Assembly (NCBI GenBank): GCA_036172245.1
Contig: JAYWIR010000087.1
Coordinates: 186,001-250,000, forward strand
Origin: Raillietiella orientalis
Taxonomy: Eukaryota
Direction of reading: 5' to 3'
DNA: 64,000 nt
How positions within the stretch are numbered: position 1 is the stretch's first letter; each line of letters opens with the position of its first letter. A program made the translations under genes and the position numbers. This document shows positions 1 to 53,165 of this stretch, piece by piece. Below the pieces are notes generated by a model. The model ran no database searches, had not been told where the DNA came from, and worked only from the letters and a program-made list of their open reading frames with translations.

Positions 1-1025
1 CGGGGCAGCAAACCATCCAGCTTTTCTCCTTGGCCAATATTGCCATGCGCCTGAGCAGTAGGCAGCATCTTCGAATCTTCCGGCCACGGCTCAGAAAAAA
101 AGACGCTAGTCCATCGCACCGGGACACACGGCTGGCAAGGAGGCGGGCCGGAGTGTACCAAGGGGTGTTCCACATCTTTGCTGCGATGGCAAGGGTTTGA
201 AACCGCAGCTGCTTCTCCACGCACTCCAGCTTCAGGAGTCCAATACCGCCGTCCCGACGCGGAGCGCACAAGTCCTTCAAAGAGACTTCGGGCGTCCCCT
301 TGCCCAAAGGGCGATGCGGAGGAGGTCCTTTGTCCTCTTCATGGATTCCACGGTGAAGGGGCAAACCAAAAGCAAAAGGCGGAGGATGGGGGCCGCAATG
401 ACGTTCCAAACCGCGGCCCGTTCCGGCAAGTGACACTTGCCTTCGAAGAACGCGCCGATCGCCGTCTCGACTTTCTGGAGGCAGCTGGACCACGCTTTCG
501 CAGGGGAGTAGTTCCTTAACGGGACACCAAGGTACTTGGAGCACTTCGTCGTGGGAATCCTTAGACGGACGCATTCCTGCTTCCCTGCCCACGACGCACC
601 TATTGGCACAACCGACGACTTCGTTCTGTTAACCTGGAGTCCGGTCCCGCTGCTCAGCAGATCGAAAAAATCTCCGACCGTCTTTGCCGGGGTGAACACT
701 GGCAAGGAGAGCAAAAGATCTTCCGCGTACGCTGCTACGGGGGGCGTGCCAGGGCACCAGCTCATCAAGGGGGTTAAAGTCACTCTGCACGCTATCAGCA
801 CTAAATCAAAGTAGGTACTGTAGAGCAGGGGGCTGAGGTTATCTCCTTGCTTTATGTCCCGCCGCACCGGCACCCCATACATCTTCTGACCGCTGAAGGA
901 GACGCTTATCATCGCATTCCGCCAGCAAGAGCGCGGGTAGGAAATCAGAGACGGTGGGAAGCTCATGCGACCAAGGAGCTTCAAGAGGAGTTCTTGATCA
1001 ACATAGTTGACCGCGTTATGCGCTC
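1..1025 (-). mobile_element. Copy S, alpha-family non-LTR retrotransposon: RT second half and thumb region; runs off the window start; host of J1
   Basis: ORF 277..984 has RRDIKQGDNLSPLL, YAEDLLL and KYLGVP. The degenerate 'HNAVNYVDQELL' (= HKAFDCVDQELL) reaches about 1020, where J1 begins. Confidence 0.85.
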
Positions 1026-2140
1026 GAGGGGGGACGTGTTCTGTAGGTGCTCCTTGTGCCAGGAAGTCTCCCCCAGTGCAAGCGTCGTGTGCTTCGGTGG
1101 TCGATCAGGCAGCGATGCCTGACGCGACCAGCAGGGATAGCAAGGGGGCAGCGGCAACCCCGCCCCCAGAGGCGATGGAGAACCAGGGGGCGGCGGCAAC
1201 GTCGTCCCCAGAGGCGATAAAGGTGGAAGCATCGGCCCTCACAGAATCGGTCCCCGCTGCAGCGCGGGCGTGAAGCGCCGTTGTGTCGACGCCATCGCCT
1301 GCATTGCGGCGGATTTGTAGGCCTATGTAGAGGAGAGGTACAACAGCTCACTGTTCTACAAGGTAGGCAATCTTAATTCTTTAGACAGCGCGCGCGCTTT
1401 TTTGAAGGGCATGCGCGCTCTCGATGTGAAACAGGAGGAGATCAGCGCTATGACCATCCGCAGCGGGCGTCAGTACGTTGAGGTCATCTGCAAACATGCA
1501 GAGCTGACCCAACGATTGCTTAAAACCCTTGTTGTGATGGGGACGCGTAGACTCCTCCTCACTTTGGCGGATTGCAGCATGGTGGTCCACTTGTAAGGTG
1601 TAACCGCGAAAATGCGCAAAGAACAGGTTCGCGATGCCCTGCAACAGTTCGGAACGGTCCACGCGCAGTTGACGAAAGTTACTCCACTCGAGGAGACCAC
1701 GGGGCTGCAGCACGACCTCACGGCTGCGCGCGTGATCGTTCGGAAGTGCTGCACCCTTCCCCACAAACTAGTGGTCCAAGGCGAAACCGTGCACCTCTGG
1801 AATTTGGGAAAGCCGAAATACTGCGGCTTCTGCAATACTTCGGGTCACCTCAAAAAGAGGTGTTGAAACGTGCAGTGCCAAGTATGCGGCAAAATGGGGC
1901 ACACGAAAAAGGTGTGCCGAAAAGCAGCAGTGCGGAAGGTTTCCAAAAGAAACCTTAAAAAACGCGCATGGCTTCTGCAGAAAAGGCTGGCGGCGAAAGC
2001 TGAAGCGTAGGCTGGGCCACTCGCGCCCAAGGCCCACGTCGCACCCGAGACCCCGGCGAACAGCGCCGTACAAGTCGAGGGAACTAGCCTAGGGAAAGAA
2101 CAGCAGGCAGGCGAGCAGATTAAAAAATGCAGCGTTCTCG
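1026..2140 (+). mobile_element. Copy J1, gamma family: 5' end and ORF1 (gag-like, two CCHC knuckles), frameshifted; cut off by D
   Basis: 5' motif GGACGTGTT at 1032. ORF1 starts at ATG 1115 (MPDATS), followed by CGFCNTSGHLKKRC and CQVCGKMGHTKKVC. Colinear with J at 49900-51031. Confidence 0.85.
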
Positions 2141-2171
2141 TTTATTACCCGGTTGCGCCGGGACGTTTATT
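2141..2171 (-). promoter_or_regulatory. Conserved 3'-terminal poly(A) signal plus CCCGG-N5-CCGGG hairpin (representative copy)
   Basis: Recognisable, with varying decay, at the ends of D, E, A, B, C, F, H, I, K, N, P and Q. Confidence 0.75.
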
Positions 2172-4578
2172 CTTGATATCAACTGAGAACTGTGTTCCCA
2201 AGCAAGAAGAGCAGAAAATGGGGAGTAGATTTCCCGGAACGCGGGCCAGGTACACTGAGATTTCGGAACGAGAGAGGGTGGGACCATAGATAAATAAATT
2301 GAGTAAGAGGGCGGGGATTGGGGTATACAGTCTAACCGTTCCTGTAATCAGAACCGGCGGTGAATGCCGCCGATCTCTGTCCTAACTTCTGCTCCCAGGT
2401 GTGGCCAACCTGCAGCCATTTGCAGGTTGCAGGCTGCGGTTTCGGGGACCAATGTTGAGACTGCTCGCATCTGCAATACGTAGCGGGCCCTGACAATGGT
2501 GCGGACGCAGCAGATGACTGCGACTACCGCTCCAAGAGAAAGACCGCCACGCCTGTAGAAGTGGCGCATCCGATCGAGTTCGGTGTGTCCCGGTGGAGAG
2601 GGGGGTTAAGACAGACGTTGCCACAGATTCTGGAGGGCACCGCACTCAAACAGCAAATGCGGAAGCGATTCCATCGCTCCGCAATAAGCGCAGTTCGGGA
2701 AAGCAACTCCCCCGGAAATCAGGTGCGCCCGCCTGTTGCAGTACAAACCTCAATGCAGCAGAAGAAAAGCGTCCTGCTTCCACCGAAGGAAAAAGAGCGT
2801 TCCGTCCAAACACGCAGAAGGGACCACAAGTTCATTGGTGGGCACCCCGAGGAGCTGAGTCCACCGGAGAAGCCCCTAGGCACGAAGGCGAGGTGTGGCA
2901 GCTTCTGCCACTTCGCAAGTCCGCCAGCCGCCTAGCAGTCGGGTTTCGGCTGCGATTTCGCAAGTGATCTCTTACTTCGCCGGCAGGTCTCTGTCATCTC
3001 GCACTATCAGTGCACACAGTGCTTCGGCGAGTGCCGTAGCGGCTTGGCGTGACCACTAGTCCTGGTCTTCCAGCACCTCCCCCACTGGTCAGTATGGGGA
3101 AAGTTTCACGCAACGGAGTTCCAAACGGGACACATCCTGTTGCGCTGCCCAGGACGATAAGGCTTCCTGCCTTCAGGCGTTAAAGTTCCAAGGCCGGAAG
3201 GAGATCCACTCATGCTTTCCCAGAAGCGTGGCAAGCTGCTTCAAAGGGAAGCCGAATCCTCGCTGGGCGCGAACCGTGCGCAGATGCAACCAACGTAGTC
3301 CGTCGCCACCCGTGCAGCGCCGCAGCAGTGGCCGCACTGGACCACACCAGGGAGTAGTCCAGAGCTGCACACATTGTGCCAGCATGCGGAACTGCACTAG
3401 CAGTCCTATCCGCTCCAGGGTCAGGATACCCATTCCTGCATCCCGCCGAGGAGCCGCCAAGTCTTTCAGGCGTATCCTGGACCTCGCCGGTCCCCACAGG
3501 GCGTTCCGCAACCGGCGTTGCGCCCGCCGCTTTGCCGAGTAGGGAGGGAAACCAACAAAAAAAAGATGACGAAGGAGGGGGGCAACCAAAATGTTCCACA
3601 CGAAGGCCCGTTCCGACAGGAGAAACCTGCCGCCATGGAACGGGCCCATAGCAGTGTCGGCCTTTTAAGGCATTCCGAACACGCTACTGCTGGACAGAAG
3701 GCGCCCAAGGCAACGCCGAGGTACTTCAAGCACCTGGCCGTGGGTATCCCCAGGCGGATCCAGTCGGAATGACACTCCCACGTAGAGCCAACCGATACAA
3801 CGGTTGATTTCGTCCGGTTGACGCTCAGGCCCACTCCCCGACGAATGAGCTCGAAGAAATCCTCGAGCCTGGACGTCGAAGTGCACATGGGCAGCGGCAG
3901 GAGAAGGTCGTTAGCATATGCGGCCATGGCCGGTGTTGTCGGGCAGGAGCTCGGCAGGTTGGCAAGCGTTAGCCTGTACTCCCTCAGCACCGACTCAAAG
4001 AAGATGCTGAAGAGCAGGGGGCTTAAGCTGTCTCCCTGCCTGATACCCAGCCGTATAAGAATGCCTTCCACGTGGCGCCCGCTGAAAGACATACAGGATA
4101 ACGCGTGGCGCCTGCAGGAGCGCGAGTAGGCGACGAGATGCGTCTGAGGCCAAGGCGTCCGAGAAGCTTTAGAAGGAGGTCCTGGTTTACGCTGTCGAAC
4201 GCTTTGCAGAGATCGACGGCGACCGCTAAGGCTCTTGGCGTTCCATCGTGCTTTGAACACCGCCGCTTACCTTTGGCAGCGGCTGCCTGGCTCTGCTGCG
4301 CCACGCTCTGCTGCTAGTCGAACCATGTTAGCGAGAAGAAGAGAATCGCGTCCATGGACCGCCCCGGAACAGCATACGTCTGCTCCTGATTTACCAAGGA
4401 CTCCGCGATTCTTCCCAAACGCGCGACTCATAGCTTGGAGACCAAGTTGATGTCCGAATTCACCAAGGTGATCGGACGCCAGTTGCTGAGGTGCCGCAAA
4501 TCACCGCCTTTTCGTAGGAGCCGCACCTTTGCTGAGCGGAAAGAAGCGGGAACATCTCCTGTCTCACGCATCAATGAG
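2141..4578 (-). mobile_element. Copy D (3' part), beta family: RT to C-terminal CCHC finger, 3' UTR and terminus
   Basis: LSNWRPITLVNSD, AVDLCKAFDSV, GIRQGDSLSPLLF, YANDLLL and KYLG. ORF ends at 2348. Terminus AATAAA-CGT-CCCGG-CGCAA-CCGGG-TAATAAA at 2171-2141. Confidence 0.88.
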
Positions 4579-4656
4579 GTTCTGCTGTGCTTGTGTGGTG
4601 TAGTGGAAGCAAGGAACAACATCAGCCGCAAGAAGAGAACGCCACTTTCTCCTGAG

Positions 4657-6684: not shown

Positions 6685-9600
6685 TGCAGGAAGTCGCCTC
6701 TTTTCGTCGATTCAGCGTAGCCTGTTGGAACGTCAATGGGCTGCGCAGGGACGGAAAGAGGCGCGACGTGTCAGACAACCTGCGACATTGGGAATTGGCG
6801 ATCCTTCAGGAGATGCATGACATCTCCGATGCGGAGGTTGCCTAAATCGAACAGCACGCGGGTGGCACCCTGTACTGGCGAGAAGGTTCTGCACAATCGT
6901 GCGGAGTCGGTTTTCTCGTCAATAGTAGGATGGCGGTAGCGGAGCGCAGCGTTCGATTCTACCAGGAAGGGCGAATGGGCCAACTTGTACTCAAGTGGTC
7001 AGATTCAATCGACCTCGTCGTAACGAAGGTCTACGCGCCGAGCGGCTTTTATCGGCGTGTCGACCGAATCGAGTTCTTTGACGTGCTGGAGAGCGAATGG
7101 CTCAGAAACTCAGGAGCCAGAGTAACGCATCTCGTAGCAGGGGACTTCAACGTCCACCTGCTTTCCAACGAGACGCGGTCCCTGGCGGAACGGTCGCGGG
7201 TGGAAGAGGCATGCGCGTCGGTGCACGCGCGAAACTTGGAAGCTGGCGAGCCTCGACTGGAAAGGTTATTGGATCACCTCTACCTCTATGAACACCTACT
7301 CTCGCGAGTAAGAAGGAGAGACAGGGTGCCGTCCACGTAATGGGACTATGATACGCTGGAGTTCGAGCTACTTTGGCCGGGCAAGGGACCTCCAAACAAT
7401 GTTTGCAGGATGCCGGCGGATTGGCTGAGTCACCCGGAAGCGGCGCAGCATCTTCGATACTTCCTTCGCGGCTTTGCCATCGGGAAACTCGCCGACTGGG
7501 ACGATCTTAAAAGATCGGTTCGCGAGTTTTGCGACCGGTTCCCCCTGCACCTGCTACCACGCGGCTTCGGGAAAGGCGTCGCCAATAGCAGAGCATTTCT
7601 GCAGGCGCGCACCTTCTCGAGACGTGCGGAAGTTAAGCAACTCGCAGAGTACATGGCGAGGACGGAGCGCCAGGTCTAGCAGTCTGGAGCGGCTATTCTG
7701 CTCGACGACCAAGCCCGGGAATGCACGGCTCCTGCCGAAGTGCGGCGAGCTCTAAAACGTCACTTCTCCATGCTCAAGAGCGCGTTGCGGCGGATAGCCG
7801 AACAGCGGCAAGACCTTCAGCCGACTGCGTGCGCCAGTGCGGACGGACGGGAGAAAAGCCTGGAGCCTTGGCACTAGCAGTAGATTTGCACAAAGCATCC
7901 GACTGCGTAAACCAGTAACTCCTCTTGGAGCTCGTAGAGCGTCCTGGGCTCTTGAATCATCTTCTTCTGTACTTGCGCTCCTGCTGGCGCCATGCGATTA
8001 TCAACTTGTATTCCAGTGGCTCCCGCGTGTACGGAGTGGCCGCGAGCAGGGGCATCAGACACGGCGACAGCTTAAGTCCGTTGCTCTTCAGGATCTACTT
8101 TGAGTTGGTGCTAAAAGAGTACAGGCTGACGCTGGTCGTCCTGCCCAGCGCCTCTCCGTGCACTCCGTCCACGGCAGCATACGCCGACGACCTTTTGCTT
8201 CTGTTGCCCATGTCTACTCCTCCGGACCCGTTCCAAGACTTCTTCGAGCTGATCCGTCGTGGAGCGGGCTCGAGCGTTAACAAGGCGAAGTGCTCCGTCG
8301 TGCCAGTGGGTGCGTCGTATGAGGGACAGGCCGACTGCATCCGCCAGGGGATCCCCACGGCCAGGTACTTCAAGTACCTTGGCGTACCGTTGGGCCACTT
8401 CTGCTCGTTTGAATCGTGGTCGGTCTGTCTTCAAAAGGCAGTGATGTCTCTAGGCTTGTTCCTGGAAGGCAAGTTCGTCGTGCCGGAAGGATCGTACATA
8501 TGGAACACTTTCCTTGCCCCCCTCCTCCGCCCCTTATTTTTTGTTTCCCCGCCTCCCTATGTGGTTAAACTCCGGGCACAGCGTCTTGTACGTGAGGTCT
8601 TGTGGGGCTCTGTGCAATCCAGGGTTCGCCTCGTAGATTTGGTAACGCCACGCCAGGACGCAAGCCTGGGCATGCTGACCATCCAGAAGTTTGGACTGCA
8701 AGTGCAGTTCAAACTTCTATCCATATGTGGGAAATTCTGGTCTAGTTACTGGTGCGCTCCGGCTCGCCATATTCTCCAGCGATGTGTCAACAGTGCATGA
8801 TTGCTTTCGTTGCTGCCGCGCAACCTTCGCCGGAAAACTGGATATGGCTATCCAGTGAGGCATTCGTCCTCGTTGCTGTTAGCCCATTCCTGGATTTTCT
8901 GCCGCCCCTACAATTGGAATCCTTGGCAGCAGGAAGCTCTGGAGCACTGGGCGTTCACTTTGGATGTGCGCGCAGAGCAGCTGCGACCCGTGCAGAGCCG
9001 CTTACGCAAGCCGCTAGGAGTGATCGTAGAGGACTGGTCGCTTTGGTCCCGGATAGTCGTCTCACCCATCGCCGCAGCGCTGTCTGCTGTCTGCAAACAA
9101 CGACAGTAGCCAATCGGCAAGGAGGGAGATCTTCTGCAGCATTGCAGGAGTGAAAAGACTGCTGAGTGGCTGCAGAACGAGCGTGTTGGTAGACGCTGCC
9201 ACTCCTCGTTACCTGGCAAAGGGACTTGATCGCTGGAGTGAGGTTCTTGGATTAATCCCCGAAGCTCTCGTGGTCCCTTCCTTGTGTGTGGACAGCTCCG
9301 TGTTCCCGCTTCGATTAAAACAAAATGTTCTTTTTCTGCAGTGGGAATTCGAGTGCAATAAGCGCAGAAACTTGATTACAGGGGGAGTCGTCTCCCCGAA
9401 CTGCCTCAGGTGCGAGGCGATAGAATCGCTTACGCACCTGCTCCTTCAGTGCAGTGCCTTGCGTGAGTTATGGTGGAGACTTGCTTCGGTACTTCGGCCT
9501 CCTCAGGACACTGCCACAGACCTGCTTCGACGCTTTTTTAGCAAAGAGGGACTGGAGAAAGGCGCTGTTATCGCAACAATCTCTGGCATCCGCGCCATCG

Positions 9601-9746: not shown

Positions 9747-10000
9747 AAAGATTAGGAACGTTTTCTACCCAACATCATCCACCCCACTCTGCACTGTTTT
9801 TTTGTTTGTTCTCTTATGTTTTGTTTCTTTCGTATCCCTCTCCTTCCGTTCCTTTCTTTTGGAAAGCAACCTGCGTGCCTGTGATCTTTCTGAACTGAAC
9901 TTTCTGTATGTGCGTTTCTTGTGTCTTAAAAGAATGAATTTGCCTTGAAAACTGTGGTTCGTTTTTGCAAATAAACTTCCCGGCAAAACCAAGTTCAAAA

Positions 10001-10221: not shown

Positions 10222-10479
10222 AGACGCCGCATTCACTACTGTGCTGGGACGCCAGTTGTCTACCTTGCGATTGTCTCCTCCTTTCGGCAGGAGACGTACT
10301 TTAGCTGGCCGAAACGATTTGGGGACGTCCCCTTTTTCTCGAATCAGCATGCAAAGCCGATGCACCAGGGTGGCCAGCTCCTCCACGAAGCCTTGGTAGA
10401 ACTCCGCGGGCAGACCGTCTTCCCCTGGTGCTTTCCTCTTTCTGAGCTTTCCGATGGCGGAGACGATCTCCGCCATCGG
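10222..10479 (-). mobile_element. Delta-family RT N-terminal fragment, probably the downstream half of G
   Basis: KAPGEDGLPAEFYQGFVEELA ... GGDNRKVDNWRP matches Q at 62100-62350. The position fits G continuing beyond the deleted 5' end of F (inference). Confidence 0.65.
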
Positions 10480-11927
10480 ACGACAAAATCGCCGAAACCA
10501 ACGACGCTGCCTTCGAGAAGGCCGCCGAGATGCTTGCGGCAACGCTTGCCGAACGCGAGAACCCTTCGCGAAACGGGTTTCGTAGGCCGGCAGCGGCTAA
10601 AATGGCCCTCGCAGGTGAGTCGGACCTGGAGGCAGGAAGTGCATCCTACTCTGCGGTCGCACCACCAAGGAAAGCGTGGCGATAATTGCAGAAACCGCAG
10701 AGGTGCATTCCGCCTCCACGCGGGGGGGATCCAATGGAGGAGGAACCGGTGGATGACAGCGTGGGAGCACAATTTGGGCATCACCCACGTGCGGAATTGG
10801 ACAAGGAGGCGACTCCAATGGAGGAGGGTAACCAGGGGTCAGCAATGCCCTCTGAAACCGCCGAACCTGATCCACCCGCACTAATATATGTGGGCCAACA
10901 GGTACGAACAACATCTCCTTCGCATGGGCAGCCGGAAACTTCGGAACGTAAGAAGGATGGGGAGTTTGTGGACCAGACCCCAACCCCATCCAGCGACCCG
11001 CCCCAAAAGGTGGCGGGAGCACCACCGTCAGGTTCCCAGTAATAACACCTGGACTCGCCTGTCGCCGTCGGATCCGCGCGGCCTGTTGGAATGTTGACGG
11101 GCTGCGCGACGACGGAAACAGACGAGATACAGCCGCCAGCTTGCAAGATTTCGAACTGGTGCTTTTCCAGGAGGTCCACATGATCACGGCAAAGGACGCC
11201 CAGGAGAGCGAAACGATCGCGGGAGGGCGGTTGTACTCGCGATTCGGCGCACGCAACACTTGTGGGGTCGCGTTCTTCCTAAAGCCAGGCATTAACGCTG
11301 CCGTGAAGATCGTGCGCATTGGGGACGACGGACGGATCGGTCAACTGATTCTCAGATGGTCCGATTCGATCGACCGCATCGTCACCAATGTGTACGCTCC
11401 TAGCGGTAAACAGGGATACCAGCAGCGCAACGCGTAACTGGAAACCTTGAAGCGCGAATGGCTGGTGGACGCGGACTTGTGAAAGGCGCATCTCATAGCA
11501 GGGGATTTCAACGTCCGTCTGCTATCAGATCTTCCAGGAGCACAGGGAAACGCGATCAAGGAGTTGTGCACCGCCATGCGCGCGCGCAACTTGCTGACAG
11601 AAATAAGCGGGATGGTCAGGAGCGTGGACCACGTCTTCCTGGACGAAAACCTGTGCACACATGTCGGTAAACCAGGGACACTTGAATCGACGCTGGCGGA
11701 CCATTCCCGGTTATTATTCGAGATGCGCCCGCGCCACAAGGGACCGCCATAATGGGATTACCGTATGTCAGGGGACTGGACGCGCCTGTCAGGAGCGAAA
11801 GAACATCTTCGCGAATTCCTGCGAGGCGTCACCCTCCAGAGATTCGCGGATTGGAACCAATTTAAGGACTTGGACCGGGAGTTCTGCGTACAGTTCCCTG
11901 TGCAACGTCTGCCCCGGGGATTCGACG
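10480..11927 (+). mobile_element. Copy F (5' part), alpha family: ORF1 C-terminus and endonuclease, interrupted at LPRGFD by A and B
   Basis: DAAFEKAAEMLAATLAERENP, TAACA junction at 11043, FQEVH, NVYAP, GDFN, RSVDH, LADH; ends at QRLPRGFD. Confidence 0.85.
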
Positions 11928-12136
11928 TTGCCACCCGGGTACGCCCAATGCGTTTATTTATAAAAAACTCTACAATCGCGGTACTAGTCCCCGCTCACGT
12001 CCTTATGCATGGGATCTACCGGGAGACCGAGACGCAGCCTGGCGTGACACTCCCCGGCAGCGAAAGGTAATGAGGAAAAACAAAAATAAAAACAAAAACG
12101 CAAAGAAACAAATGAGGTTGGAGGGCAGGGAAGGGA

Positions 12137-17593: not shown

Positions 17594-17703
17594 CGGACAC
17601 CGACGATGTGCACGCACAATCCACTCAGCAAAAAACCACTTGCCTTGCCACGCAAGCGGAGAGCAGGAAAAGCACGTCCTCTCTCCACAGCGGGGATTCG
17701 ACG

Positions 17704-26690: not shown

Positions 26691-26755
26691 ACGACGCCAA
26701 AGATGAAGCGGATGAAAGCACGGAGACGAGAGCGAAGAAAAACACGTCCGCACTC

Positions 26756-37605: not shown

Positions 37606-38966
37606 ATAGTGCAGACGTGTTTCCGCGTCTATCCGCGCCAACGATCGGGCAACTTTGTGCCTGCGTTTTCGCTCGCACTTGTGTGTTCCTGTGCAATCTG
37701 CCAAGTAGCATAGTGCAACATGGCTAGTACACAGAATAGTGTGGAGGAGCAGGCCACTGGATGCACTTCAGCTGCACTTGAAGTGGCCGCATCCTCCGTA
37801 ATGGATTCCTCGCCCCCGGTGAGGAGTTACGTTGCCGTTACCTCTTAAAGACCAGGACCCTGCGATGCAGAGTTCCAGGCATATGTGTCATCAGGATACA
37901 TGCCTGCACTCCGTTATAAGGTCAGTGGGCCACTTTACGGGAGAATCGGTCGTGAGCTCAATGATGAGCTCGTCCGGATAGGCGTTCGCGAGGAGGAACT
38001 CCTTGCCATAATGCCTGCTGGCAGGATGGAATATACGAAGATTCGGTGCAAGAACGCAGCACTGGTGCAGCGCCTTCTCCGTACGCCGTTGACCATTAAT
38101 GGCAAGGAAGTCCTACCTCTTGCGATGGATGACTCTTTTGTCGTTCAATTGTGCGACATCGAACCGGAAATCTCCGACCGCAATGTCGTAAGTGTGCTGG
38201 CGAATTTCGCCAACGTGCACGCTCTGTGGAGGAGGCCAAATCCTTTGAAGGATTTTCCCTCTGTCCACATACGACAAGCCTCCGCGCGGATCACCGTCGC
38301 GAACACGCGTGTTGTGCCTGAGCAGCTGCAGGTGAACGGCACGGTCGTTTACCTGTGGTTCATAGGCTTGACTCGCGCGTGCGAGCAGTGCGGCAAGGAT
38401 GGGCACCGAATTAAAGGGTGCTTCTCTCGAAGATGCCGCTATTGCTAAGATTCCGGGCAAGAAATCAAAAAGTGCCCATTACTTGCAAGAAAAAGAGCCG
38501 CAGCGGAAATTTGTCGGGTTCAAGAGACCACTGCACGAAAAGCCGCAGCGGCAAATAAAGAACGTCGTCCGCAAAAACTCGCAAAAAACCACGAGCGATC
38601 CGCGGATGAAAAGAAAGAATCCCCGCCCGCAACTCCCGGAATAGGGGAAAGTCACGGCGGGAGAGCGAATTAAAAAGGGGCGCGAGGGTTTGACGCGTGC
38701 CGTGCCTTCCCTCTCTGCCGAACTCGCAGGCACCTCTGCGAGCCAGGAACCAGGTAATCTCCGTAACACCCTGGAGGGAAAGGTAGGAAAAGAGAAAGAT
38801 CGCAACAGTACGAAGACTTCTTGCCCCGTTCCGTTGTCCCATCCGAGTTCCGGACAGCCCCACTGCAGCGCAGGCCCCTCTGCAAAAGCTACGAAAGCCG
38901 TAAAAAGCAGCGTCGCGACGAGGAAAAGCACGCTGCATGCAGTCGCCCCATCGCCGACTCGGCAGG
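37606..38966 (+). mobile_element. Copy K (5' part), beta family: 5' end and ORF1, inserted antisense into the J endonuclease
   Basis: AGACGTGTTT at 37613. ORF 37885..38448 (GYMPALRYK, CEQCGKDGHRIKGC). TSD atttcctgcgctcgt (37591-37605) / atctcctgcgcttgt (49108-49122). Confidence 0.88.
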
Positions 38967-39041
38967 TTTCCCCAAGTCCCACAAGGGGTGGGGTAAGTTT
39001 ATTTTTCTACAAAAATACAAAATTTACATTCGCACTCTCAT

Positions 39042-42000: not shown

Positions 42001-42613
42001 GAAACCCCTGGAGGCGGTTCCCAAGTTCGGTGCTGTGCAGGACATGATCGATTGGCTTGTAGCTTGCTGTTCGCCAGACCAGTCCGATCTCCACGGATAG
42101 CCGTCGATACGCCGTCCTTCCTCTGGCGTCTTCCGAATGAAGGATCTCATCCAAGATGTTGAGATCGCCAGCAACAATCTCGACGTCCTTAGGGGCGACC
42201 TATTGCCGGAGTGTTGCATACAGCGCCTCCGCACAACGATGTTTTAGCCTGTGCGGCCCGTACACGTTCAGCAGGATAAGGTGAACAGTTGCGGACCAGG
42301 CCAGTCGCACGCCGATGTTCCGTCCGGGTTGGGGACAGAACACTTCCAGAATAGTGGGGGCTAAGTGGTTCTTCATTAGCACCGCCACACCCTTCGTGTT
42401 CCGTTCTCCTTCGTTGACGAACATCTGCTCGTTGAATCGCCGTTCCATTCGCTGGCTTGTATCCAGACCCATCCTGTGGGTCTCCTGCAGGCACACGATG
42501 TCTTGTTGTGGGATGGTCCGCACAATCCTTCTTCTATTTCCCTGGTCGACCACACCGTTTACGTTCCAGGAGGCGGTGTTCATCCTCCTGGCGGTCGATA
42601 GGGAAGAGGCCAT
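39042..42613 (-). pseudogene. ORF2 of M; contains the longest open RT frame in the window (39705..41900, 731 aa)
   Basis: SWNVNG, CLQETH, NVYGP, AGDLN, IDH, SDH; AAGPDS, QWRPILILNSD, DMEKAF, GVRQGDSLCPMLF, YTDD, KYLG; C-terminal CAACG. Frameshifts between segments. Confidence 0.9.
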
Positions 42614-42928
42614 AAAAGGGGAAGACCTATTTTTTGGCCTTCCTGAGCTTCTTCTGTCTGAGAGAGCGTGCTCTTCCAGACAATGAAGATGCAGCGGGCT
42701 TATCGCTGCCGGCGTCACTCTCTGTACCTGTGAGGTCGGTAATTTCCCCTCCTCCGTAGAGTGTTCCGCCTGCGCGATCAATTTTCGAGATAGCGCCTCT
42801 ATCTCGACCTTGGCGCAGAAGTGCGCCTTCACGTCGAGAAGCTGTTCCTCTAACTTCTTGCGTTCAGCGACCTCCACCGCCTGGTTGATTTTCTCTTGTG
42901 CAGTGCAGATCTTCTGCAAGATTTTCTC

Positions 42929-44295
42929 TTACTGAGGACCGCTCTGCACCTCCATGATCTCCTCCGCCAGTGTTGCAAACTCCTCCGTAGTCTGCAGAGC
43001 TTCCTGCGACACTTTAGTGGCTTCCTGTCTCTCTTCCTTCGCGCCTTCCTGCGCTACCTCCATCTTCTCGCCTTCCTGCTCTGCTGCTTCCAGGATTTGA
43101 GGAGTTCCTGGCTCCTTGACGAGCATCCTCCTCTTTCCCTTCTTTCCCACTTCTATGAAGCCGTCCGCCGACACCGGGACAGCTTGTTTCACTTTTTTCT
43201 GCCTTCCTGCCTTCTGAGGCTGTTCGGCCTCCTTGATGTTTCTCTCTCTCACGGGAGAGAGACCTCGAATCCTTCTGCAGTTATCAAACTCCGGACAGCT
43301 CTATTTCGCATGTCCGTGTTTCTTGCAGAAGGAGCACACCTCCGGATGCGGCAGTTTCGGACTTGATGTCCTACTTTGCCGCAGCGGAAACAACGACACG
43401 TTGGGCAAGAGCCGGCCCTGTGACCGAACTGCTTGCACCCGGTGCAGAATACCGGTTGTTGCCGGTAACGCACATTCACTCCCTGGGATTGTTCGTCAAT
43501 AACGGCCAATCCCGGGATCACCGCTCCCTCCCTCAACTTCATCTTGGCGATCATGTCGCCAGAAAATATGTTTCCAGAGAAGTTCTGGAAATCAAGGTCC
43601 AGAACTTCCCTAAAGTGCTCCAAGTAATTCCACACCGCTAGTTGAGGTGTGAGGATGGAGATGCCGTTTAAAAAGACGGTTGTGTATGGCATCTCGCCAA
43701 TACCACAAACCATCCGTCCTTGTATATTGATCCCCTTCTAGATCAATCGCTCTCTAAGGTTTTCACAGTCTGTAAAGACTGTGAACCCGTTGTTTGATGG
43801 AATGATCGCCTGAATGCGATCAAAGTCTATGTCCTTCTTGTCGAGGGACAAATAGACCTCCCTGATGTTATTAAATTTCATTAGTCCCGTCTTAAAGATA
43901 ATGGGCTTCACGTTGGGGCCTATTTCGACTATTGGTCGGTCCACTTTTAGAACTTTTCCGCTAAGCGGCTTTCCGAATTTACTAGGTGGGTGGACACTCG
44001 CCTGTCCAGCCGCCACCGACGCATAAGAAAAGGGCTGCGACGCCGCAACCGAACAAAATGGCGTCGCTCCCTGCACCGCGTAGACGCCCGCGGGTCCCGC
44101 CTGGGAAGCCACCGCCGCGGGCGCCAATCTCGACGTTGCCGCCGTTACCGCCGCGGGCGGCACCCTCGGCATCGCCGCCGCGGGCACCACCCTTGGCATC
44201 GGCGCCGCCGGCGCAGCAAAGCACGCCGCGGGCGCGATCCGCGCCATGCCTGCCGCCACCTCGCTGTTGCCGCACGTTACCTCCATGGCTTCCAT
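42929..44295 (-). pseudogene. ORF1 of M (Ala/Pro-rich leader, possible RRM-like region, CCHC knuckles, charged helical tail)
   Basis: CTGCKQFGHRAGSC and CFRCGKVGHQVRNC in ORF 43249..43713; Glu/Lys/Gln-rich ORF 42929..43252. Confidence 0.8.
44114..44250 (-). repeat. GC-rich degenerate tandem repeat of about 27 nt encoding PAAAMPRV-like units in ORF1 of M
   Basis: gccgcgggc recurs several times; protein reads APMPRVVPAAAMPRVPPAA. Confidence 0.7.
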
Positions 44296-44506
44296 GGGGG
44301 ACGACGGTCTCTCCACTCCTCCTCTATGTGCCTGTATCCTGGCTGCTGGTCTTACTGCACGGGACCACTGCAGGTCTTTTGCCGCGATCTCCTCGCCGCT
44401 TCTTTTTTTTAGTTTCGTCTGGAAAACTTCCCCTCTCCGGGCACACACGAGCACAATTAACTGATTACTTTGTCAAGCGCACAATACTTTGAGCCGCGGA
44501 GCAAGT

Positions 44507-47500
44507 TCACCGACTCGGCAGGAGAGGAGCAATCTCCCGACTCTAAACAAGGCGACTCCGTTGCCGTCTTTGAAAGGCGTAGCGAAAGCAACGCTCCCAG
44601 AGAACCCAGAAAAAATCCCGGAGGTTTTCGCAACTACTGTCGCGGAAGTCTCATAAAATCGCAAAGGCGAATGAAAGGTTGTGGAGAGGAGGAAAGAAAA
44701 ATCTCCAAAAAAAGCTCCGCAACATCCATCCCTGAGCTCTTCCAAAGGAAAAAGCAGTCGCGGGAATACGGAAACACGCGCGGCTTGTGCATCTTTCAAG
44801 GAAAAAGTCAGCGCTTTCAACGCGTGCAAGTCCGCTTCTGTGACCGCCCAAGAGACCATTACGGTGCAATCGGACCTATGCAAGCGCACGTCGATCGTGC
44901 GAGCATCAGACTTTGCAAAGGAGTCCGATAGCGCCGCTGAACGACGCCTTACTAGCGCGAGAGCGAACGCCCGCAGGGCTGAAGCCCCGAGGCGTGACAC
45001 ACTCGCCGCGGAACTGCGAGTGCTCACTCCGGAACCCACAGGTTCTGCACCCGGGGAGGAGCACCCGATTACGTGCAGCACAGTTAAGTCCGGTAACGAC
45101 CGCGCCCTCCAGCCCGTCGTGCTGCTTCCTGCCCGCTCGCCGGGTGAGGCGAGCACCACGGCCTCGCTTTCCCAGCCGTGATGAGGGCAATCGCGTCTTC
45201 TCGTGGTGTTGTCGTAACGTCTTGGAACGTCAACGGGCTCCAACACGAGGAGAAGAGGCGACTAGTGGCTGACGCTCTGCGCGCCTTCGACTTGACGCTC
45301 CTGCAGTAGATTCACAGCATCTCCGGAGAGCAGGCTGCCGAAATCGAACGGCGCGCGGGCTGAACGCTACTTTATTGGTGCGGCGTTGCACGTACGTGCG
45401 GTGTCGCTTACCTCGTGCGAGGAACTTTGGCGGGAGCGGTGCACAGCGTTCGCTTCGACACGGAAGGCCGAGTGGCACAGCTTGTACTCAAGTGGTCCGA
45501 CTCCATCGACCTTGTCGTAACCAACGTGTACGCGCCGAGTGGTGCTGGACGATGGGCCGAAAGGATTGAGTTCTTCGGTAGCCTTCAAAGCCAGTCGCTC
45601 ACTCGATCTCACCCTTCTGTGGCCCATCTCATTGCTGAAGACTTTAACGTCCACCTGCTTTTTGAGAATAGATCCCACAAAAGGGAAAAGTTGCTAGCGG
45701 AAAAGATGTGTGCGTCCGTGCACGCGTGCAACTTGTTCGCTTGCGATTCTGTTATGGCAGCAACGCTGGATTACTTATTCCTTGATCCACACTTTCTCTC
45801 TTGAGTGGGTCGGAGAGGTCCCGTGCCGTCCGTGCTTTCAGACCACAACAGGCTCTAGTTCGAGTTGCTCCCGCCAGGCAAGGGGCCTCCAAACTGTTTT
45901 TGGAGGATGCCGGCAGACTGGCTAAGCCACCCGGAGGCGGTTGAGCATCTACGCCAGTAACTCCTCGGCTTTGCCGTGAGTGAGCTCGAGGACTGGGACG
46001 ATCTGAAAAGATCGGTCCGCGAGTTGTGCTGCCGGTTTCCCTTGCACCAGCTACCGCGCCGCTTCGGAGAGGGCGTAGCCAACAGCAGAGATTTTCTGCA
46101 GGCCCGCTCCTTTTCCAGGCGCGCGGACGTTGGTCGATTATCCGAGTACAAGGCCAAGGCCCAGCGCCAGGTCTGGCAGTCAGGGGCGACAGTTCTGCTC
46201 GACGACCAGGACCGGGAATGCTCGGCTCCAGCCGACGTGCGACGGATATTCAGGCGCTATTACTCTTCTCTGTATGCAGAGGCACCGACGGAACGCAGCC
46301 TCTCCCGGCTGCTTCTGCCGATTGATGCACCTGCTGTAGACGAGGAGAAACGCGCGCGTCTTGATGAGCCCTTCACGGCAGAGGAAATTTCCTCGGCCAT
46401 CTCGGGGCTCAAGAGACGAAAAGCGCCAGGCTAAGATGGGCTCTCCTCGGAATTATTTCAGTGTTTTGCGGCGGAGCTCATCCCCCTGGTGCTCCAACTC
46501 TCGTCGCTGATGCGAGACTTGGGAGATGTCCCCGCCTCGTTTCGCTCAGCGAAGGTGCGTCTACTGCCGAAAGGCGGAGACTTGGGTCAACTGAACAACT
46601 GGCGTCCGATCACATTAGTGAATTCGGACGTCAAGTTGTTCTCGAAACTTTGGGTGACGCGAATGGGTAGGATCGCGGAATCCTTGGTATAAGTCCGGAG
46701 CAGACGTACGCTGTTCCTGGGGGGTCCATCGACGTGAATCTCTCGTTCATCCGCACATGGCTGCAATTGCAGCATCGTGTGGCGGTGGATCGTCGTGCGG
46801 AAGAGACGCCTTCGATCTCTCACCGACGAAGGCGCGATACGCAAAGGGAGACCCCGGGAGCCTTGGCGGTTGCAGTCGATCTGCACAAAGCTTCCGATTG
46901 CGTGAACCAAAATCTTCTTCTTAAGCTTTTGGAACGTCTGGGTCTTCCGGCATCCCTGTTGGCGTGCTTGCGCTCCTGCTTGCGCCACGGGATTTTATGC
47001 ATTGTTTTCAGTGGCTGTCGCGTGTACGGCGTGCCGGTACGACGAGGAATTAGGCAGGGTGACAGCTTAGGCCCACTGCTCTTTAGCATCTATTTTGAAT
47101 TGGTGCTGGAGGCTTACAGGCTGACGCTAGCCAACCTGCCGAGCTCCTGTCCAGGTACGCCGGCCGTGGCAGCCTATGCCGACGACCTGCTTCTTCTGTT
47201 GCCCATGTCCACCCCGGCGACATCGCTTGAAGACTTCTTTGAGTTGATTCGTCGCGGTGCGGGAGTGAGCGTTAACAGGAGTAAGTGTATGGTTGTTCCG
47301 GTGGGTGCGACGTGGGAGGGGCAGTCCGAATGGATCGACCTGGGGATCCCCACGGGCAGGTACCTCAGGTACCTTGGGGTGCCGTTGAGCGACTTCTGCA
47401 TCTCAGAAGCGTGGTCGAACTGACTTCGGAAGGCAGAGCGTGCACTTGGCCCGTTTTCAGGAGGCGAGTTCGTCTTGCCGGAACCGGCCTGCATCGGAAC

Positions 47501-49107
47501 ACCTTCGTTGCCTTCCTCCTCCGCCCTCTGTTTTTTGTTTGTCTACCCCCCCAGGAAGTCAAAGTCTGGGCGCAGCGCCTTCTACGCAAAGCGTTGTATG
47601 GCGCTGCAAGATCCCGTTTTAGACTGAAAGACTTGGTTGCGCCGCGTCAGGATGCCGGCTTGGGCATCCTCGAATTAAACAGCATCGAACTGCAGGTGCA
47701 GTTTCGCATGCTGCGGCTCTGTGCCAAGCTGTGGTGTACGTCTTGGTGCTTACCCGCACGCCTTATACTGAGGCGCTGCACGGGAAGCAAGGGACTGCTT
47801 TCGTTGCTACCCCACTGTCGGCACACCAGAATAGGGTTTGGCTTCCCGCTGAGGCAGCTGTCCTCACTGCTGGAAGCCCAAAGCTGGATCTCCTGCCGCC
47901 CCATGAAAATTAATGCATGGCGGCAGGAATCTTTTTCATCGTGGGCAGCTTCCGAAGGAACGCGCCCAAAAGATCTTCGATGCCTGCGACTTCTCCTCAG
48001 TCATCAAATGGACGAAGTCATGCAGGACAAGAAGTTGTCGGATCGTCTGGGCGCCACACCATTCGCCGTAGCGCTGTCTGCCCTCAGGGCAAGCAACGAC
48101 GGTTGCCTACCGGCGGAATGGGAATTCTCCTGCAAAAAACCGTGAGTCAGTAAGCTCCTCGGCACCTGGACGACAAAGGAGCTGGTGCAAGCCGCCACTC
48201 CTCGAAATCGGGCGGAGGGTCTGCTTCGGTGGAGCGAACAATTAAGTGTGCCCCCCGGAGGAAAGGTGGTTCCCTCCGTTTGTTTGGACAGGTCCGTGTT
48301 CCCACTTAAGTGGAAACAAGATGTGCTGCTCCTTTTACATTGTGCATTACACTTTAATAATCAGCGAAGCATCGTTTCCGGGGGAGCTGCTTTGCCAAAC
48401 TGTTTAAGGTGCGGAGAGATCGAGTCTTTTCCGCACCTTTTGCTGGACTGCGGTGACCTCCGGGAACTGTTGCGAAGGCTCACTTTGGCCATCATGCCAC
48501 AAGGAGGCACTGCCATTGATGTGCTGCGGCGCTTCTTCAGCAGAAATGGACTTTCGGTTGGCGCGATTGTCGCAACCATGTGTTGCGTTCGCGCCATCCT
48601 GAAGGCCCGCTACGCCCTGGAGTTGTCAGCGCAGCGAAGGGAGGCTCACCTGCTTGCAGCTCAATTCATGGGAAAGGCTTCAAGGTGGTCTCATCTTCGT
48701 GACAAGGTGCATGAGGACATCACCGGCATACATCGCCGGTTTACACACCTTTGAGAACGGCGTAATCCGGTGACCCCTGCAACCTTTCGCCCACCTATAC
48801 CCCGTCCCCGTTCGCTCGGTAAAATTTTTGGTGCCCATGCTTTTATACCCGTGTCTTCCAGAGCGATCCCAAAGACCCTTATCATGTCCTCCTTATTTAT
48901 TGTTTTTAGTTTATTTTGGTTTCTTTGTGTTCCCCGCCCCCTCACACCGTTCACAAAACTGTTACTCTGGCCTGCGTGCCAGCAACATTCTCTTCATTCT
49001 TGTTCAGTCGTCGGTTGGGAGTTTGGTTCTTAACTGTTTTATTTTGTATAATTAGTTTTTTTGGTTATGTTATATGAAATACACGCCCCGGCGTGACCGG
49101 GTGAGAA
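44507..49107 (+). mobile_element. Copy K (3' part): ORF1 tail, complete ORF2 span, 3' UTR and terminus
   Basis: ORF1 ends SQP* at TGATG 45179-45183. Terminus AATACA-CGC-CCCGG-CGTGA-CCGGG-TGAGAA at 49078-49107. Confidence 0.9.
45181..48754 (+). pseudogene. ORF2 (APE-RT-CCHC) of K, colinear but with stops and frameshifts
   Basis: WNVNG, NVYAP, EDFN, SDH, KAPG, NWRPITLVNSD, RQGDSLGPLLF, YADD, RYLG, CLRCGEIESFPHLLLDC. Confidence 0.9.
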
Positions 49108-51031
49108 ATCTCCTGCGCTTGTTCTCCAGAGATCACAAAGATCTCCTGCAGCCGCCCAAGGTAGAACGATCCTAGAATGGCGGCCATGTCTCCTCCCCTG
49201 CCGGCGTCTGTCATTGCGTTCACGTTCCAAACGGCGATGCGTAGACGACGGCGGGAGAAGATTCCCGGCATTACTGCCGGGTAGATGAAGGTGTGGGAGA
49301 ACCCGCCTCTTCCGAGGCGGGTGAGATGACCATTAGGGTGTCGTCCTCCTCAGGCACCTTGGATACTTTTCCGGCTTCAACCCCCTCCATCTCCTCCGTG
49401 TCTGTGCGTGGTGGTCTTTCGGGTTATGATTCCCGGGATTCTCCCACACTGATGGCCCCCTCGCAGTCGGAAGTCATCTCCACGCCTTCGGCCTGGAGAG
49501 GGACTTTCCGGGGTTTGCTCGACTTCCTTCCAGCCTTCCGGCGGGGTGCCGCGGAGATGGAAACTTGGTTTCCGGCCTGCGCTTAGGGATCGGAAGTTAC
49601 CGACTCCTCGGTGGAGGTCGGACGCCTAACTACCTCTTTGTTATCCCTAGAGGGGTCTCGCTGCAACGATGCAGCCAGCTCCTCCACCGCACGCTTGAAG
49701 GCGGCGTGATCGATCACAGTCTCGATGACGGACGCTTCCGCCGGTTCGCTCCGCACGCTGTTCACATTTTCAACAGTGGGTTGCTCGTAGGTAGCATCGA
49801 TTTCCACCTGGCAGCGTTCGGCGATAACGCGTTCCAAGACGACGCTGCATTCTTTTAAATTCTCGCTAACCTGCTGTTTGTTATTTTGGTAGGCGATCTT
49901 TTTTTCAATTCGTCGTTCTTTCTTCTACTTTTTCTTTTTCGCTGTGGCTTCTTGCCATTCGGAGACCTGACCGCTTTTGTCGATGTTTTCGGCATTCGTT
50001 GCCAAGGTGTCAACTGCTGCCTGGATCACGGGTGTGGGTGGCATAGCTAAAGCGGCAGCCTTCTCCGCCAGCCTTTTCTGTAGCATTCCCGCGGGTTCTT
50101 TTAGGTTCCTCGCGAAAACCGCGCGCACAGCGGATTGCGGACACACTTCCTTCGTGTGGCCCATTGTCCCGCATACCAGGCACTGTACGTTGAGGCACCT
50201 CTTTTTGAGGTGTCCCGACGTGTTGCAGAAGCCACAGTATTTGGGCTTCCCCACGTACCTGAGTTCGACGCTTTCTCCGATGACCACCAGTTTGTGAAGA
50301 AGGGTAGAGCCCTCCCGGACGGTTACACGGGCAGCCGTGAGGCCGCACTGAACTGTGGTATAGTCCTCGAAAGGACTAGGCTTGGTCCATACTGCATGTA
50401 CCGTGCCTTCTTTTCCCAACGCGGGGCGTAACTGTTCTTTCCGTATCCGCGCGAAAACTCCTAAAAAATGGACCACCATACTTTGGTGCGCCGCAATCGG
50501 AAGGCGTCTGCGTGTCCTCATCAACACGGGGGTTTTGAGCAGGCGTTGGGCCAGATCTGCATGTTAGCAGATCACCTGTACGTACTGCCCCCCGCTACGA
50601 ATGGTCATAGCGAAGACCTCCTCCTCTTCAACATCGAGAGCGCGCATCCGCTTCGAAAAGGCGCGCGCACTCTCAGAAGAATACAAATTTTCTACCTGGT
50701 AGAATAGTGATGGGTTATACCCCTCTTCTACATAGGCAGATAATTCCGCCGCCGCTGCAGGGGATGGCGCCGACACGCCGGCGCTCCACGCCCGTGCTGT
50801 AGCGGGGACCCGTTTTGTTGGGGCGGACGCCCTCACCACCTTCTCCACTGAAGGCGACGTTGCCGCTGCCACCTGGCACTCCATTTCTTCAGGAGGCGAC
50901 GTTGACAACGCCCCCTGACACGCGCTGGTGTTCGTGTCAGGCATTGCTGCTTGATCGAGCTCCACCACACACGAAGCCTACACCTAGGGACGGTTCCCGG
51001 CACGGGGAGCACTGACGAAACACGTCCGCTC
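49108..51031 (-). mobile_element. Copy J (5' part), gamma family: 5' end, ORF1 (ATG 50944) and endonuclease start; inserted antisense at the RT DLxKAFD motif of N
   Basis: GGACGTGTTT at 51027; CGFCNTSGHLKKRC and CLVCGTMGHTKEVC; TAATG at 49273-49269, then MPGIFSRRRLRIAVWNVN ... AQEI. Confidence 0.88.
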
Positions 51032-53165
51032 TAACCGCCGTAAAGCTATCGACTGCGTCGACCAGGAACTTTTTTTGGAGCTCCTCGAACGCATGTGTTT
51101 CTTGGCCGTGCTCCAGTCCTACCTGCGCTCATGCTGTCGCAACGCGTCGATAAATGTTGGTTTCAGCGGACGGCGCGTGTACGGCGTGCCAGTGCGCCGC
51201 GGCATCCGGCAGGGTGACAGCCTGAGCCCCTTGCTCTTGAGCATCTAGTTCGATTTCCTGCTGAGGGCATACAGGCTAACTTTGGCAACCTTGCCGAGCC
51301 CGTGTGCCGGCACGCCTACCGTGTCAGCCTATGCAGACGATCTTCTCCTGCTGCTTCCCGTGTCCACCCCGGTGAGTGCGCTCGAGGACTTCCACTTGCT
51401 GCGCCGCGAGACGGGCCTGGAGGTGAACAGGGCGAAGTCGTCAATGGTCTTTCTCGGTTCGGCGTGGGCAGGACGGTCGGACTGGATCCGCTTAGGGATC
51501 CCCACGGGCAGTTGCTTCAAGTACCTTGGCGTTCCGTTATGGGACTTCTGCGCAGCAGAAGCCTGGTCCGTCCGTTTCGAAAAGGCATCGTTGGCGATCG
51601 GTCCGTTCCAAGAAAGCAAGTTCAACTTGCAGGAACGGGCCGCGGTGTGGAACGCGTTTGCGCCCCTTCTCCTTAGCCCCATGCTTTTTGTTTGCTTTGC
51701 CCCTTATTTTATTCGAAAACGAGCAGCGGGCCTCCTGAGGAAAGTCCTTGGGTGCAAAAGGAGGTCTTGCGTGAGGCTCAAAGACTTGTGCGCTCCACGT
51801 AAGGACGGTGGACCTGGCGTCCTTACGCTGGTGCGCATGGAAGTGCGACTACAGTTTTGGACTCTCGCCCTCGCGGCAGAACTGTGGGACACGCCCTGTT
51901 GCATCCTAGCATGCCTCCTAGCCAAACGAGCCTGCGGATCCGGGGGACTTTTTTTGTTTCTGTCGGCGCGCTTCGGTAGAAGATCACACTGTGGCTCTCA
52001 CCTGCGACGCATTGTTATTGCGGTTTGGGAGAACGCCTGGATCTCCTGCCTTCGAAGGAACTACTCTGCTTGGTTGCAAGAGTCAGTCTTCATCTGGGAA
52101 AAGATCCACGTTCCGGCGGGCACAAGGAACACTTGCCTGAAAAGGCACGCCTGCTGGACGCTGCAGGAGATCGTGCAGTCCCGCGACCAGCTTCTGTGGG
52201 CTCTGATAACCCTCCTTTCCCTAGTGCTGCCCTTCCTTGAAATTGCCAGGGACAGTAGCGAGCAGGGGAAATGCGACCATTGGACTGTGTCCTGCAACAT
52301 AGGCGGCAGGACACAATTGATAAAGGCGTGGACATCTCGGCAGCTAGCTAACGCTGCGATGCCCAGTGTCCCGCCCAACGGAATTCGAAGCTGGGGCGAG
52401 CTACACGGACTAACTCTGGAGGAGATAAAATGGCCCGCAGCGTCCTGGATCAGTGCATCACTCCCCCTGAAATGGCAGGATGTGGCGTTGCTTGTGGTAC
52501 CCTTTGGATTACCATTCAAAGCACGCCTGCACCTCACCATTAGGGGGGCTGTGGATTTTAATTGTGACCGGTGTTGGGAAAAAGAGACGTTCCCCCACCT
52601 TCTCCTTGAGTGTAGAGCCGTCCGCCCTTTGTGAAATCGTCTCGCGGCGATCCTGGAATTGCGCGTATGCGGCCCAAAGGACGTTTTTAGGCTACTCTTC
52701 TGTAGTGACGCCTTGTACCCGCTCACTAGTGTTAAAGTCCTCTGCTGCATCAGAGGAAAAGTGGCGGCTTGGAACGTCACCAGAAGAAGGCGTCAGCCAG
52801 CCGGTAAAGCCTTACACTGGACTCGCCTTTTCGCGCGCAGTGTCTGCAAGTGGCGCCACTTAGGCGCTGATAGGACTCAGCTTGTGCGGATCCAGAATAG
52901 GATCTAGAGGAGCTGTCCACGCGCAACGTGATCTTTTCCCTGCCCTCCCACCCCTAAAACATTTGTTCCCTTCCATTCACATTTCAACTTTTTGTTTCTT
53001 TTTGTTTGTTATCTCCCATCCCCGCTCATGGGAAGGACCTCTCCGGCATGAATCCGGCAACCAGCAAGGTGTTTTGCAGTGGTGAACTTTCTGGTTCCCC
53101 ACGCGACATTTCATGTATTTTCATTTCAATGAAATAAATGCCTCGGCGCATCCGGGTGTGAGTCA
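51032..53165 (+). mobile_element. Copy N, delta family: RT second half to terminus
   Basis: RKAIDCVDQEL, RQGDSLSPLL; ORF 51282..52634 (YADD, KYLG, CDRCWEKETFPHLLLEC). Terminus at 53133-53165. Confidence 0.88.

Follow-up and report, generated by a model that had tools for sequence, protein, structure and literature searches.

A LINE family found twice, antisense, at the reverse transcriptase motif-A codons of sibling LINEs in a nested retrotransposon cluster

Can the catalytic codons of one LINE (long interspersed nuclear element) serve as the landing site of another? The question is raised by a 64-kb stretch of the Raillietiella orientalis assembly GCA_036172245.1 (contig JAYWIR010000087.1, positions 186,001 to 250,000; hereafter the window, with positions counted from its first letter), in which two copies of one LINE family, gamma, each begin against the reverse transcriptase (RT) gene of another element. 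A preliminary description of the window had placed the 5' ends of these copies, J1 and J, at the host codons for the motif D-L-x-K-A-F-D, in the same register and antisense, and had proposed that gamma has a specific target of its own there. We confirmed the abutment at the nucleotide level, with J1 starting at 1026 and J at 51032, both at the motif-A codons, both antisense and in the same register to about 3 nucleotides (nt). Ordinary target-primed, site-specific insertion of gamma is the best reading of the two junctions, with a probability of about 0.6; the two cases suggest, and do not prove, a dedicated gamma target site. The segments concerned are listed below, the extents of J1 and J being corrected from those first given (J1 ends at 2140; J runs from 51032 to 49108 and resumes from 37608 to 37101).

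1 to 1025, minus strand: host S, an alpha-family L1-like element represented by its 3' part; its RT starts at the motif-A Asp codon and runs off the window start, with an RVT_1 match.
1026 to 2140, plus strand: J1, gamma 5' part; 5' untranslated region (UTR) to 1114, open reading frame 1 (ORF1) from 1115.
2140, plus strand: 3' limit of J1, where the 3' end of another element interrupts ORF1 near codon 340 in the numbering of J.
49108 to 51032, minus strand: J, gamma 5' part; 5' UTR 51032-50945 (88 nt), ORF1 50944-49274, N-terminus of the apurinic/apyrimidinic endonuclease (APE) from 49247.
49119 to 49108, minus strand: 3' limit of this part of J, which ends in the target duplication AGCGCAGGAGAT.
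37101 to 37608, minus strand: continuation of J (APE domain), opening with the second duplication copy AGCGCAGGAAAT (37602-37591).
51033 to 53159, plus strand: host N, a delta-family element of which the 3' part is present, starting at the motif-A Asp codon and ending at the natural 3' hairpin.

At locus 1, the RT of host S reads ...(D)(L)HNAVNYVDQELLLKLLGRM on the minus strand from 1025 down, and J1 starts on the plus strand at 1026 with GAGGGGGGACGTGTT (longer reading GAGGGGGGACGTGTTCTG...). At locus 2, J begins on the minus strand at 51032 with AGAGCGGACGTGTTT (longer reading AGAGCGGACGTGTTTCG...) and host N begins on the plus strand at 51033 with AAC CGC CGT AAA GCT ATC GAC TGC GTC GAC CAG GAA, so that J1 and J each lie antisense to the host RT. 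The site was aligned across nine uninterrupted RT copies from the window together with S and N. The nine copies read GCA GTC GAT CTC CAY AAR GCG TTC GAC TGY GT. (A V D L H K A F D C V), and by comparison with them the homology of both hosts stops at the D codon of GTC|GAT CTC CAT AAG GCG TTC GAC. The opening of N, AAC CGC CGT AAA GCT ATC GAC, is a decayed GAC CTC CGT AAA GCx TTC GAC (D L R K A F D). That of S, GAG CG- CAT AAC as against GAT CTC CAT AAG, carries a 1-nt deletion and substitutions in the DL codons, because of which the junction register is resolved only to about 3 nt.

The same boundary was obtained by translated comparison with P0067, an intact external relative of the host families (619 amino acids, 61% identical to an alpha RT) whose motif reads AVAVD228LRKAFDCVDQELL. 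N aligns over 372 residues, starting at residue 229 and with 58% identity, and S over 247 residues, starting at residue 230 and with 63% identity; residues 1-228 of P0067 have no counterpart at locus 1 or locus 2. Because of these alignment starts, both hosts begin at most about 3 nt from the first base of the Asp codon. P0067 D228 aligns in turn with D600 of human L1 ORF2p (AVD-LRKAFD versus SID600-AEKAFD), which we take to be the catalytic motif-A aspartate. The earlier statement that the motif carries the catalytic aspartate is upheld by this alignment as regards the position of the residue, the catalytic role of D600 itself being presumed.

On the gamma side, J1 and J both open with the terminus typical of full-length elements in the window, GAG.GGACGTGTT. 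On the two strands of the 64 kb there are five exact matches to the 9-mer GGACGTGTT, each at an inferred element 5' end:

1032, 26749, 29065, 51027 and 62677: sites of the 9-mer, in J1, J and three other inferred full-length 5' ends.
17672-17685 and 37609-37624: close variants of the 5' terminus, at two further 5' ends.

Two of these 5' ends are fixed independently, that of the full-length Y-family element X'FL by its target duplication and that of element c23254 by host halves that abut across it. The starts of J1 and J are true element 5' ends. A terminus of the form GAG.GGACGTGTTT is common to full-length elements of several families, and may be an internal promoter or a start-site element.

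Gamma is a distinct family, the other ORF1s of the window being 31-40% identical to that of J, and J1 and J are its only members in the window. Their ORF1s share 59-61% amino acid identity and the same layout, the ORF1 of J1 is 31-37% identical to the ORF1s of alpha and other families, and the nearest ORF1 to J is that of element P, at 40% amino acid identity. The ORF1 of J spans 557 codons with three in-frame stops, and in the translations of J and J1 alike two CX2CX4HX4C motifs, putative knuckles, can be made out; one sibling ORF1 passes the Pfam zf-CCHC threshold (23.1 bits against a cut-off of 20.8) and a second has a sub-threshold zf-CCHC_2 match (20.8 against 27). The reading frame of J continues across the element that splits it (..GEQAQEI / AQEIERIFGG..), and the two copies of the 12-nt duplication match at 11 of 12 positions. 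The APE N-terminus of J (..IAVWNVNAM..LQEI..) and its continuation at 37608-37101 match sibling APE segments (42-52% amino acid identity, E down to 3e-40) that themselves carry Pfam Exo_endo_phos. Neither gamma copy retains anything past the APE (RT, 3' end) within the window.

The surroundings of the two junctions are almost wholly APE-type non-LTR (non-long-terminal-repeat) retrotransposons nested in one another, with a GC content of 53-60%; a Pfam scan returned RVT_1, Exo_endo_phos, zf-RVT and CCHC knuckles throughout the window on both strands. As coordinate reference we used alpha1, a full-length copy of 5775 nt (17690->11916, minus strand), and a single nhmmer run with it tiled nearly the whole window. 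P0067 aligned with human L1 ORF2p (8c8j, 8uw3, 8sxt) over 395 residues (E ~1e-39), and judged from such alignments the RTs of the window are L1-like. A word-based search with the most intact RT of the window gave only matches of 22-32%, the named ones from Closterium, land plants and Phytophthora, and a feature search pointed to Streptophyta. No relatives of the alpha0 RT were found in viral contigs, the RT of N had no match in a word-based search against longer proteins, and P0067 found only fragments of 22-61% in metagenome contigs (7 loci) and one match of 26% in genome contigs.

We then considered the possibility that the two junctions descend from a single event. One BLAST alignment spans both of them (133-2028 against 51924-50030, 70%), and J1 and J are each followed by an antisense Y-family element, as might be seen if one ancestral insertion had been copied as a composite and S later converted by an alpha copy. 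S is 80-84% identical to the alpha copies at 13015-14034 and 18787-19807, and N is 87% identical to the copy at 33396-35130. In a maximum-likelihood tree built on the 1 kb downstream of the junction, S fell within the alpha clade (92/100) as sister to the uninterrupted alpha2 (84% identity), and N grouped with c61852 as its sister (96/97), the identity between S and N being 63%. An ancestral composite is hard to reconcile with S being nested among uninterrupted alpha copies over the full 1 kb, with the different positions of the inserts downstream of J1 and J, and with an identity of 70% being the between-family level everywhere in the window. We regard it as highly improbable.

Two readings were rejected here. 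A duplicated composite fails on the placement of S and N in different clades, on the cuts at different gamma positions and on structure beyond J that is unmatched at locus 1. A hairpin-like stretch that follows both J1 and J had been taken for shared APE sequence, and alignment of four Y-family 3' ends showed it to be the Y-family 3' terminus. The shared stretch is the conserved Y-family 3' hairpin (ATAAACGTCCCGGCGTGACCGGGTGATAAA and variants) and not gamma sequence; because it belongs to the incoming elements, the cuts in J1 (2140, in ORF1) and in J (49108, in the APE N-terminus) differ. The two gamma events are independent.

The only two gamma copies of the window therefore share one site, to about 3 nt, and an antisense orientation, in hosts that belong to different families. 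If insertion were uniform along a host of 5.8 kb and either orientation were allowed, the chance that the second would match the first within 3 nt and in the same orientation would be p ~6e-4 by our own arithmetic. The match might nevertheless be a coincidence within a regional hotspot, if insertions favour the stretch of about 1 kb between the APE and the RT core, antisense, with no recognition peculiar to gamma. Of 18 inferred contacts between insert and host, about 13 are antisense by our own tally, which was not independently checked, and this majority suggests a general orientation rule for insertions in the nest. Most nest breakpoints lie between reference positions of about 2770 and 3660, and Y-family elements land at several different sites; these features all fit a hotspot. 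When the calculation is confined to the region of about 900 nt that holds most nest junctions and the antisense excess seen in the nest is allowed for, agreement to 3 nt between the two gamma copies still has p ~6e-3 (again our own arithmetic). Precision of landing is, in addition, the rule for some families, as the alpha site described next shows, and we consider a hotspot with coincidence unlikely.

The alpha site lies in the linker between APE and RT. Five junctions in four hosts fall there, antisense and with nucleotide precision. Three hosts are interrupted there, at 25, 27 and 27 nt past CAGTT, with an antisense element's 3' end adjoining the break; in two hosts the sequence picks up again at that point, following the full-length 5' end of an antisense element.

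11915/11916, 29078/29079, 32023/32024, 35868/35869 and about 62663-62674: junctions at the alpha site.

One of these sites carries two elements in tandem, alpha1 and alpha2. Because the alpha site recurs at nucleotide precision, precise antisense landing sites are a property of at least some families in this nest. With a second target of the nest struck five times at that precision, a target specific to the gamma family is plausible.

The geometry of the junctions raises a different possibility, that of repair-type or chimeric joining. The motif DNA is semi-palindromic (GATCG CAGT CGATC in alpha copies) and might break or stall; in a variant of this explanation, complementary DNA (cDNA) of the host would halt at the motif and a full gamma cDNA would be ligated to it, by a twin-priming-like process or by endonuclease-independent capture. 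A full-length 5' end set against a truncated antisense element has the geometry of twin priming, both gamma copies are without their 3' halves in the window, and no target duplication is seen in the window. A possible 2-nt TC overlap was noted at the gamma junction. In addition, nt 24-38 of J (CCCGTGCCGGGAACC; 50995-51009) match the reverse complement of 14058-14072, upstream of the Asp codon of alpha1, at 14 of 15 nt and with equal spacing from the junction, a score reached by none of 5000 shuffles. This match is limited to alpha1 (1 of 16 element/host comparisons), is found with none of the other seven hosts and not with J1, and is unexplained. Twin priming on a single RNA is excluded, the ORF1 of J1 being of a family that differs from the host family alpha, and later insertions visible in the window account for part of the loss of the 3' halves. 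Taken with its variant, joining of this kind is unlikely, on a par with the hotspot.

The order of arrival could also be reversed: alpha and delta elements, 5'-truncated at motif A, would have inserted at the 5' boundary of older gamma copies. The 3' terminus of N is natural and lies within another element, and 5'-truncated copies are common in clusters of this type according to the available portion of one account (PMC8226300). Such a history requires two coincidences, however, namely the same truncation in two families and insertion exactly at the first nucleotide of gamma, and the alpha family's own target is a different site. Hosts as newcomers are therefore quite improbable.

These comparisons leave site-specific insertion of gamma as the preferred reading, and a mechanism can be sketched on that basis. 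Gamma, with an ORF1 bearing putative CCHC knuckles and an ORF2 bearing an APE, would integrate by target-primed reverse transcription at GCA GTC | GAY CTC CRY AAR GCN TTC GAC (A V | D L x K A F D) in the RT gene of sibling LINEs, in antisense orientation. The first nick would lie on the host sense strand beside the motif, because the insert is antisense. The full-length cDNA end (the complement of GAG.GGACGTGTT) would be joined directly upstream of the Asp codon, and it is this 5' junction that is seen twice. Each insertion would split the host RT at the motif-A catalytic aspartate, and gamma would thereby be confined to the existing LINE nest, much as rDNA (ribosomal DNA)- or repeat-specific LINEs are confined to their targets. 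The parts that we infer are a target duplication, where the first nick falls, and recognition of the sequence by gamma's endonuclease or its ORF2 protein. Ordinary insertion with short duplications does occur in this nest, as with X'FL in J (12 nt) and P in its Y-family host V (6 nt).

Several observations weigh against site-specific insertion of gamma. Only two gamma events are available, and in target-primed insertion the 5' junction is the less precise end. No gamma 3' junction or target duplication was found in the window, in agreement with the preliminary description, which had reported the 3' junctions as missing, and no host 5' fragment ending at the motif-A site was found in the window tiling. 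Large deletions, or insertions with loss of target, must be assumed, as the gamma copies are without RT and 3' ends and the nest does not close. Among the 11 RT copies of the window, nine have the site unoccupied, and none of these is allelic to S or N. Element P, the gamma relative already said to lie elsewhere, inserted about 85 nt upstream of the alpha site and not at motif A. The protein assignments are also limited: for gamma ORF1 Pfam gave only an AIR2-like zinc knuckle (E 0.005, 17 bits against a cut-off of 27), and for gamma's own short APE fragments it gave no match. No further gamma copy was found in the collections searched; the gamma 5'-end pattern GGACGTGTTYYGTMRGTGCTCC had no matches in genome contigs and none in viral contigs, and no relatives of the J ORF1 were found in metagenome contigs.

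In the search for gamma 3' ends and host 5' halves that would close the nest, attempts at 2140/2141, 10227 and 37101 failed. Two candidates were discarded along the way. E1 (10488-11915) as a continuation of J1 proved alpha-like and no nearer to J than the other families are, and S could not be the 3' part of an element together with the fragment at 10227-10478, as this fragment is 84.5% identical to c61852 while S is alpha. The original claim that gamma has its own specific target is accordingly retained as plausible on the strength of the alpha-site precedent and of the independence of the events, and is tempered by there being two events only, with no 3' junction or duplication.

The DNA at motif A is among the best conserved across families in the window alignment. 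Such conservation fits a site-specific element and is by itself no proof of selection for an "unmutable" target; the further suggestion that the host cannot mutate the target away is speculation. A broader idea, which we hold tentatively and lean against rather than for, is that the nest was built by sibling L1-like families acting as a guild, every family landing antisense at a precise site of its own in the coding sequence of the others, the alpha site in the APE-RT linker being one such site and the motif-A aspartate codon that of gamma; gamma would then be a LINE that parasitises LINEs. If this were so, each gamma insertion would kill the polymerase of a competitor, whose need for catalysis would in turn keep the target constant, and mutual targeting would explain the growth of LINE-only, centromere-like clusters.

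Nested LINE-only clusters have a precedent in green algae, where L1-type LINEs of the Zepp and Zepp-like (ZeppL) groups are described, in the portions of the literature available, as inserting into their own copies (PMC3446292, PMC8226300, PMC9940879, 10.1101/2025.03.28.645958). The window has the same architecture as those accounts describe, almost all of its 64 kb tiling on one reference of 5.8 kb. It differs in that the portions of the accounts at hand give targeting of existing copies and tandem 3' ends, and neither a nucleotide-defined site nor an antisense rule. It also holds several diverged families together, each perhaps with its own site. Zepp ends in poly(A), whereas the elements of the window end in a hairpin.

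The other precedent is that of sequence-specific non-LTR elements, which in the available portions of the sources include R1 and R2 in 28S rDNA, Tx1-group elements in small nuclear RNA (snRNA) and 5S genes and in repeats, and Utopia in U2 snRNA genes (PMC4640811, PMC5035012, PMC1919474). As far as those portions describe them, gamma would resemble these elements in having one family, one nucleotide-defined target in conserved multicopy sequence and a fixed orientation. The gamma target differs in being protein-coding DNA of sibling LINEs, at the RT catalytic codon, with the insert antisense, and its evidence comes from two copies and not dozens. Tx1L targets another transposon. In human L1 nicking is loose, at TTTT/AA-like sites, and no fixed target like the one proposed for gamma is known. 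In the limited literature searched, no LINE targeted to an RT motif was found.

It is plausible that gamma is a site-specific LINE variant within Zepp-like nested clusters, the observation being solid and the interpretation resting on two copies. Site-specific LINEs in ribosomal RNA and snRNA genes and in simple repeats are already known, as are the self-inserting LINE clusters that mark centromeres in green algae. If gamma is indeed targeted to motif A, LINE clusters would be assembled by sequence-specific recognition and not by mere regional preference, and competition between transposons would be written into a target site. Gamma would also provide an endonuclease and its target in compact form, the GC-rich recognition sequence being about 20-30 bp long.

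The remaining elements of the nest that adjoin the gamma copies or are related to them are the following.

2141 to 4589, minus strand: X, a 5'-interrupted Y-family element with RT matches; its 3' hairpin end ..CCGGGTAATAAA adjoins J1.
37609 to 49108, plus strand: X'FL, a full-length Y-family element antisense in J; 5' end GTGCAGACGTGTTTCC at 37609, 3' end at 49107/8.
About 38990-44511, minus strand: R, the most intact element of the window, which splits X'FL and has an 813-codon open RT frame.
55337 to 59429, minus strand: P, gamma-related, antisense in the Y-family host V and flanked by AGCTCG (55331-55336 and 59430-59435).

The stretch 37101-51032 is a nest three deep, J being split by X'FL with the 12-nt duplication and X'FL in turn by R. 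P has an internal deletion, from about reference 2896 to 4355, which takes out both the alpha site and the motif-A site. At 7747-7853, element Y is without about 590 nt between APE and RT core (reference 3027-3621), a gap whose right edge is some 30 nt upstream of the site at motif A. The two halves of alpha2 (29075-26756 and 21050-17692) abut in reference coordinates and are split, just past the APE motif ..AGDLN, by a full-length Y-family element in the same orientation.

Lastly, all families lack poly(A) and share one type of 3' end, in which AATAAA precedes a short GC-rich hairpin (CCCGGCG..CCGGGTG) and then a few bases that differ by family:

2141-2170, 9971-10000, 11916-11960, 17692-17735, 21046-21075 and 31985-32023: example 3' ends.
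33393-33430, 49079-49108, 53130-53159, 55337-55370 and 59698-59740: further example 3' ends.

This hairpin end is probably the RNA element that the RT recognises.

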